A stretch of DNA of 63,920 nucleotides from Patescibacteria group bacterium UBA1396 (GCA_002305195.1 DBQK01000009.1:61575-125494); one strand, 5' to 3'; counted from the first letter of the stretch, positions 2,973-3,024 are shown. Made by a program: numbers and translations. Notes: generated by a model not told the origin, from the sequence alone.

Positions 2973-3024
2973 ATGTCGCAGAATGTTTGATAGCTTGACA
3001 TGTGATGGTTTTATGTCGCACAAT
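2973..3024 (+). promoter_or_regulatory. Putative xer promoter overlapped by two dif-arm copies
   Basis: TTGACA at 2995-3000; ATGTCGCAGAA at 2973-2983 and ATGTCGCACAA at 3013-3023 (exact reverse complement of the dif right arm). Confidence 0.6.

Follow-up and report, generated by a model that had tools for sequence, protein, structure and literature searches.

Xer recombinases are viewed as housekeeping enzymes that are controlled post-translationally by FtsK and by the architecture of their sites. The Tn3/gamma-delta resolvase represses tnpR and tnpA through sites at res that overlap its own promoter. The organization of the Tn3 res site is summarized in PMC7157771. The TnpI site of the transposons Tn4430 and Tn5401 consists of a core, IR1-IR2, and of direct repeats DR1-DR2 located upstream of tnpI (PMC2847244). 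TnpI of Tn5401 modulates its own promoter through these extra binding motifs (PMC7157771). XerS/difSL of streptococci and lactococci and XerH/difH of Helicobacter and Campylobacter employ one recombinase and a near-symmetric site adjoining its gene (PMC5357621), and a XerS monomer binds a single half-site (PMC2965235). In archaea (Haloferax, Halobacterium), a dif-like element lies upstream of the operon that encodes the single XerA (PMC11840125).

The locus described here lies in a 63,920-nucleotide stretch of DNA from Patescibacteria group bacterium UBA1396 (the window), which belongs to a 666-kb assembly of 12 contigs that is 73% complete. A single xer gene is preceded by dif and, at its predicted promoter, by two solitary copies of the dif arm. 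By analogy, the TnpI system of Tn5401/Tn4430 is the closest precedent. As in the TnpI site, extra binding motifs on one strand lie between the core site and the recombinase gene (PMC2847244), and the autoregulation proposed below has its counterpart in Tn5401, where promoters lie within the site and TnpI binding modulates tnpI/tnpA expression (PMC7157771). However, TnpI serves transposon resolution, and its motifs are packed at fixed spacing in one 116-bp site and act mainly as a topological filter (PMC2847244), whereas the window and its relatives hold a chromosomal Xer/dif system in which arms at 0.3–6.7 kb from the core are locked to promoter boxes.

The other systems are more distant. XerS/difSL and XerH/difH share with the window the single recombinase and the near-symmetric adjoining site, but difSL is a 31-bp site with an 11-bp centre, in contrast to the classical 11-6-11 site with a 6-bp centre found here, and the passages of two XerS papers that concern promoters and half-sites (PMC5357621, PMC2965235) contain no lone half-sites on a promoter. 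The archaeal arrangement differs in that a full dif lies upstream and is linked to a chromosome domain boundary; promoter half-sites are not described for it (PMC11840125). The Tn3/gamma-delta resolvase doubles as the repressor of its own gene, as proposed here for Xer; it is, however, a serine-family enzyme whose regulatory subsites are dimer sites within the recombination site. The literature searched contains no description of chromosomal Xer autoregulation by dif half-sites and nothing on dif in Patescibacteria, neither of which is proof of absence. The parts are known, namely the single-Xer/dif module and the recombinase as its own repressor; the combination, the lone half-sites and their two fixed geometries are new.

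The single-recombinase Xer/dif locus

The window was compared with 61 related Microgenomates genomes and, independently of these, with 80 further xer loci of the wider class that were examined in an alignment-based scan. The named relatives are Candidatus Pacebacteria, Woesebacteria, Levybacteria, Curtissbacteria, Gottesmanbacteria and Shapirobacteria, all of the Microgenomates (Patescibacteria/CPR).

The xer gene (3048–4025, plus strand) encodes a 325-residue Xer-type tyrosine recombinase, the only one found in the assembly. The XerD, XerC and XerA-type models of NCBIfam all match the protein (E-values of 1e-65 to 1e-74), but the cut-off is exceeded for the XerA-type model alone, and there barely (221 versus 220 bits). 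XerS proper was ruled out because the protein scores 129.7 bits with the XerS model, below the cut-off of 267, and because the site has a 6-bp rather than an 11-bp centre. The full catalytic set (R, K, H-x-x-R, H, Y), comprising R163, K187, H262, R265, H288 and Y297, is invariant in 28 orthologues. A Xer match is present in 60 of the 61 related genomes, and 58 of the 61 have a single match.

A complete 11-6-11 dif site, AAGTCGCAAAA TGTATA TTGTGCGACAT, was read directly at 2452–2479. A search of the 61 genomes with the pattern GTCGYAMAA-N6-TTKTRCGAC, allowing at most one mismatch, identified dif of the window type in 52 of them (once in 49, twice in three), whereas the reversed pattern, used as a control, gave no match. 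In 51 genomes dif lies upstream of xer on the same contig at a distance of 381–6767 bp. Among the 80 class-wide loci it is found upstream of xer in 54 and downstream in none. The FtsK gamma domain (PF09397), which serves to activate recombination, is encoded in 20 of the 21 genomes of the order and is absent only from the 73%-complete assembly of the window. On the contig of the window, the cumulative GC skew peaks and the gene strands converge at the xer/dif locus. The distance from dnaA to the locus amounts to 37–46% of the chromosome in four closed relatives and to 20% in a fifth. A replication origin at the locus was rejected in view of the converging gene strands, the GC-skew peak, the location of dnaA on another contig and the dnaA distance in four of the five closed relatives. 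Judged by its sequence, the window locus is a single-recombinase Xer/dif module with a classical 28-bp site and a non-XerS protein, at which recombination that resolves chromosome dimers is predicted.

Several further features of the locus were recorded. The CACAA arm of dif lies on the xer side in the family of the window and on the far side in the other inspected families of the order; no inference on inversion of dif between families is drawn, since with so symmetric a site and TATA-rich spacer an inversion would look the same as two point changes. Downstream of xer, holA, a phosphomannomutase gene, pgi, holB, gyrB, ppa and gyrA share one orientation in a minus-strand block (4077–13658) that ends 51 bp from the xer stop codon. 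This places the gyrase genes at a terminus-like locus and not near dnaA, which in the source assembly lies on a separate contig (C3).

Upstream of xer, a gap of 1.1 kb extends from the end of a membrane-protein gene (1938) to the xer start (3048). A hidden gene between dif and xer was ruled out since no open reading frame of at least 50 residues occurs in 1939–3047, including the 490 bp between dif and the lone arms. Similarly, a structured RNA or tRNA was ruled out, as the gap contains no tRNA and gave nothing significant with Rfam even at an E-value of up to 1. The stretch is gene-free although the genome is streamlined, and relatives likewise have 1–1.5 kb without long open reading frames upstream of xer. 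It contains blocks conserved in the family: AACCCGAA at 2122, 2240 and 2633, GATATAGTT at 2082, CCTATAAT at 2006 and the pair AAAAGCCGATTTT...CTTAGAGCG at approximately 2728–2752. A further block, TAGCCTGG, occurs in and around the stretch at 1936, 2145 and 2759.

Two lone half-sites at the predicted xer promoter

A sequence-only reading of the window had proposed that two direct copies of the dif arm, 40 bp apart, lie on either side of a TTGACA box. The coordinates bear this out. Half-site 1, ATGTCGCAGAA, spans 2973–2983 and half-site 2, ATGTCGCACAA, spans 3013–3023; both are on the plus strand, their starts are 40 bp apart, and TTGACA is located exactly at 2995–3000 between them. Their distances from dif, given in that reading as about 500 bp, were measured as 521 and 561 bp, respectively. 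Half-site 2 is indeed an exact arm match: its 11-mer is common to dif and to 3013–3023, and with its flanks, TATGTCGCACAATA (3012–3025), it matches the reverse complement of the right dif arm (2467–2480) at 14 of 14 positions. The two copies thereby form an exact 14-nt inverted repeat that encloses 531 bp.

A promoter scan assigned TTGACA as the -35 hexamer of a predicted xer promoter, TTGACA-18 nt-CACAAT, which has 10 of 12 consensus matches. The predicted transcription start is near 3031, 17 nt before the ATG at 3048 (ATG = +18). The -10 hexamer CACAAT (3019–3024, plus strand) consists of the end of half-site 2 and its next base, as the earlier reading had anticipated in placing the second arm copy over the -10 position. 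Relative to the predicted start, half-site 2 covers approximately -18 to -8 and half-site 1 approximately -58 to -48. Overlap with the core promoter thus applies to half-site 2, which covers the -10, and not to half-site 1, which lies outside the core elements, 11 bp upstream of the -35. Half-site 1 ends in CAGAAT, which follows a TTGATA box (2956–2961) by 17 nt, a weaker promoter-like pair in the promoter scan, and half-site 1 may accordingly hold the -10 of a weaker tandem promoter (TTGATA-17-CAGAAT); the TTGATA box is not conserved within the family.

Counted with up to two mismatches, arm matches in the window are unremarkable (20 seen, 15.3 expected). With at most one mismatch, the 666-kb genome contains five, three of them within a 550-bp stretch of this locus, and the exact 11-mer of half-site 2 has two copies genome-wide, one in dif and the other half-site 2 itself. 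The half-site cluster at the xer promoter is not due to chance. The absence of a good partner arm at 6-bp spacing, noted earlier, was also found here: compared by eye with TTKTRCGACAT, the opposing positions match at 1/11 for half-site 1 and 3/11 for half-site 2. At other spacings the best matches are 7/11 and 6/11, respectively, within the random range.

These data bear on the notion that the half-sites are scars of elements integrated at dif, of the hybrid type left by IMEX, or the ends of an invertible segment, as in promoter switches of the fimS type. The exact 14-nt inverted repeat around 531 bp is what an invertible segment might present, the DNA separating dif from xer is variable in some genomes, and 68 IMG/VR viral contigs (L137–L204) carry dif of the window type (TGTCGYAMAAT-N5-TTKTRCGACA), one of them with a Xer-like gene nearby. 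However, neither half-site has a partner arm and hence there is no second site competent for recombination; the promoter-side copy of the repeat is the half-site itself. No second two-armed dif-like site bounding an insert was detected, the partner-arm scores being those of random positions. The 490 bp between dif and the arms lack open reading frames of at least 50 residues and hold family-conserved blocks, which occur in one orientation in all relatives inspected, and the offsets of the arms to promoter boxes are fixed over the whole class (see below). An origin as scars or as ends of an invertible segment is therefore very improbable indeed. As regards the viral contigs themselves, a Xer-like gene was found in the fetched flanks of only one, and since viral dif sites come with almost no viral xer, phages of Microgenomates hosts probably integrate in the IMEX manner by borrowing the host Xer.

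Conservation of lone arms in the class

Conservation of the half-sites in orthologous promoters had been suggested as a check, and lone arms upstream of xer are conserved both in the order and in the class at large. The exact arm TGTCGYACAAT occurs 124 times in the 61 genomes, compared with approximately 16 occurrences of the reversed control. Thirty-three of these matches are inside dif. Another 43, in 39 genomes, fall outside the dif pattern in the 1.5 kb preceding xer, and every one of these is on the xer strand; two or three belong to degenerate dif sites, which leaves about 40 that are truly lone. The remainder comprises 7 matches at other positions within 10 kb of xer and 41 elsewhere in the genomes. 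At the 80 class-wide loci, the 111 kb upstream of xer contain 51 lone arms with at most one mismatch, of which 40 are on the xer strand and 11 on the opposite one, versus 8 in 260 kb from the xer start onward. With the thresholds used, no lone arm is seen in about a third to a half of the related loci, and many genomes have a single lone arm only.

For 72 distinct lone arms, the best partner arm at a spacing of 5–8 bp matches on average 4.9 of 11 positions, equal to the value for random positions in the same regions, whereas the arms of dif score 10.1 of 11. Because of this equality with random positions, the lone arms should be unable to form the dimer needed for cleavage; by this sequence measure they are true half-sites, predicted not to assemble a cleavage dimer.

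The arrangement of half-site 1 is also conserved. The window shares an arm 11–13 bp ahead of the -35 with three further genera of its family (L004, L005, L007), and the CAGAA arm variant of half-site 1 recurs in relatives. Paired lone arms are spaced 32 to 52 bp apart (36 bp in G001), a variability that argues against strict helical phasing for cooperative binding. The dif-arm variants GTCGTA and GTCATA have no base-for-base mirror in the promoter arm.

Away from xer, 22 arm copies in 20 regions of the relatives were inspected, and most lie in conserved coding sequence. A wider Xer regulon was rejected, as none of the 22 copies adjoins TTGACA and most are coding. Three extra exact arms far from xer were noted at L117 (G055:C1:195798), L131 (G044:C13:8727) and L132 (G032:C1:142556). 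The first is located 28 nt before a DnaA-type box, TGTGGATAACTT; the other two follow TTTGATATAGTTA, a motif found alongside the distal DnaA box at the dif locus, by 14–18 nt. These extra arms may mark second dif-related loci or element ends.

Non-recombining lone Xer sites near the terminus are found in Bacillus subtilis, where XerD acts at XDS to unload Smc-ScpAB (as cited in PMC11840125), and lone half-sites near dif are the defining appearance of XDS (Karaboja 2021, as cited in PMC11840125). The half-sites could by this likeness serve to unload or stall an SMC complex. In contrast to XDS, however, the arms are fixed to the xer promoter and not scattered over the terminus, and the remaining copies are mostly conserved coding sequence. 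Neither ScpB (PF04079) nor the SMC hinge (PF06470) was detected in any of 21 genomes of the order (G000–G020), although most of the control genomes contained both. SMC unloading was rejected on account of this missing machinery, and an XDS-like role altogether is extremely unlikely. The order appears to lack the Smc-ScpAB condensin.

Lone arms keep fixed offsets to promoter boxes and not to dif

The 72 lone arms were anchored and the position of a TTGACA-like box was scored relative to each arm. By an estimate that assumes equal base frequencies, approximately 0.2 arms per offset are expected by chance. Two geometries relative to a sigma-70-type promoter directed at xer stand out. In class I, TTGACA is followed by a spacer of 17–18 nt and then by the last six bases of the arm motif as the -10. 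Twelve of the 72 arms, with the box at offset -29 or -30, have this arrangement; members are half-site 2 of the window, L004, L005, L007 and the distant L068, L069, L070, L083, L085 and L091, and all of these relatives possess a perfect TTGACA at the offset seen with half-site 2. The -10 of class I in relatives reads CACAAT, CAGAAT, CATAAT, TACAAT or TAGAAT. In class II, the arm ends 1 nt (17 of 72 arms, offset +1) or 4 nt (4 of 72, offset +4) before TTGAC(A/T), which is followed after 17 nt by a -10-like box; the arms at offset +1 are centred near -43, and L082 and L065 are examples of class II promoters. A third form occurs in family f16, in which the arm occupies the place of the would-be -35, 7 nt before TATGAT or TATATT.

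The relation of these promoters to xer varies. The xer start is found 10–60 nt downstream of the arm-linked promoter in L068, L069, L082, L085, L101, L115 and the window, and at that distance xer is the only gene that the promoter can serve. In many relatives, 170–450 nt separate the arm-linked promoter from xer and a second promoter-like element is closer, so that control of xer would be less direct there.

The distance of the arm to dif, on the other hand, varies together with the distance of dif to xer, from 0.3 to 6.7 kb. In G023, dif is 6.7 kb from xer and an arm is found approximately 30 nt before the xer start. In four genomes without dif in the fetched upstream flank, an arm is still present at -15 to -86; dif in these genomes is located 3.3–3.7 kb upstream in three and approximately 2.8 kb upstream in the fourth, provided that it is on the same contig. 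The lone arm tracks the predicted xer promoter, not dif. At the G023 locus, in a closed genome (L031, G023:C1:810900-819200), dif and xer are separated by about seven genes, among them those for an EamA transporter and a Fic-domain protein and one with a weak HhH-GPD match, while relatives have approximately 1 kb between dif and xer; no mobile-element marker was seen among the intervening genes.

The sequence-only reading had offered two alternatives, autoregulation of xer or accessory sites for synapsis with dif, and the comparison divides them. As accessory sites, half-sites bound by Xer would join the dif synapse and dictate its topology or the order in which strands are exchanged, and would influence transcription only secondarily. 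The arms do lie on one strand between dif and xer in the manner of DR1/DR2 between the core site and tnpI (PMC2847244), and dif is nearly always within a few kb of xer. Nonetheless, dif is 0.4 to 6.7 kb from xer, the arm-dif distance varies along with it and unrelated genes may intervene, while the -35 and -10 lie at offsets from the arm that are constant to the base pair. Known accessory motifs act at tens of bp in a fixed geometry (PMC2847244), and in many genomes the lone arm is single. An accessory role is thus disfavoured, and we regard it as unlikely. That the geometry is kept to the promoter and not to dif argues for an operator, and autoregulation receives strong support from the compared sequences.

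The sign of such regulation was considered separately. Xer bound beside the -35 could recruit RNA polymerase in the manner of a class II activator, at least where the arm abuts the -35, giving positive or dual autoregulation. The 17 of 72 arms that end 1 nt before TTGAC(A/T), with their centre near -43, occupy roughly the position expected of such an activator, and the sign of regulation may therefore differ between lineages. However, the arm of the window and 11 others cover the -10, a position compatible with occlusion only, and the f16 arm takes the place of the -35, 7 nt before the -10. Moreover, as inferred from structures of tyrosine recombinases with DNA, the bound recombinase would also cover the first spacer bases, which here are those of the -35 box. 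Positive or dual control is, on balance, improbable, although activation may occur at those promoters of relatives where the arm abuts the -35.

DnaA boxes around dif and xer

The 64-kb window contains just two perfect DnaA boxes, which enclose the dif/xer gap. The proximal box, TTATCCACA, lies on the plus strand at 3032–3040, 8 bp after half-site 2 and at about +2 to +10 of the predicted transcript. The distal box lies on the minus strand at 2057–2065 (TGTGGATAA on the plus strand), 395 bp beyond dif. No further DnaA box with up to one mismatch was found near these two.

In 110 related loci, 40 perfect DnaA boxes were counted in 155 kb upstream of xer, versus 3 in 333 kb from the xer start onward. 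Thirty-three of the 40, found in 33 of the 110 loci, are on the minus strand beyond dif (200–400 bp beyond it in the eight loci measured); the other 7 are plus-strand boxes no more than 170 nt from xer. The proximal box after the arm and promoter is kept in L007 and in L036 (G010) and has one mismatch in L005; its start is 7–9 nt after the arm-linked -10 in L001, L007 and G010. A DnaA box is absent from most class II promoters.

The neighbouring box and the strong enrichment of DnaA boxes upstream of xer raise the question of whether another protein reads the lone motif, either DnaA through the adjacent box or a dedicated repressor that shares the arm sequence. The lone motif, however, equals the dif arm over 12–14 nt, including the first spacer base, and is otherwise nearly absent from the genomes, and no protein but Xer is expected to recognize a dif arm. 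The DnaA box next to the arm is an element in its own right, one that most class II promoters lack. Recognition by a protein other than Xer is consequently very unlikely.

Proposed autoregulation of xer and its implications

Since half-sites are kept at fixed promoter offsets across the class, Xer most likely controls its own production. We consider it probable that Xer monomers bind the lone half-sites as operators and repress xer; in this proposal the activity of the promoter, the binding of Xer to a lone arm and the repressive sign are all three inferred from the sequence comparison. Transcription of xer would initiate from TTGACA-18-CACAAT near 3031. With one Xer monomer bound to half-site 2 (-18 to -8), the -10 would be covered and RNA polymerase blocked; another monomer, bound to half-site 1 (-58 to -48), would lie beside the -35 and could add occupancy or cooperativity. 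As there is no second arm across a 6–8 bp spacer, a catalytic dimer would not form and Xer would bind without recombining. In class II relatives, bound Xer would occlude RNA polymerase at the -35. The predicted outcome is negative feedback on xer.

A more far-reaching extension was also entertained, in which the gene-free 1 kb upstream of xer acts as a terminus control hub of Microgenomates. Through Xer bound both to dif and to the promoter half-sites the DNA would form a loop, the output of xer would report whether dif is free or engaged, for example in dimer resolution or phage integration, and the flanking DnaA boxes would tie the promoter to the replication cycle. Such a hub is a speculative and rather improbable proposition; if true, a recombinase feedback circuit would link the state of the chromosome to gene expression in organisms that are poor in regulators.

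The lone-arm pattern provides a sequence rule by which xer promoters and dif sites may be located in Patescibacteria. It also cautions that lone "dif-like" matches near xer would be neither degenerate dif sites nor scars of mobile elements. If Xer does repress its own gene through these half-sites, the DNA specificity of the recombinase would be reused as a repressor-operator pair, an economical feedback loop in an uncultured and regulator-poor class of bacteria.
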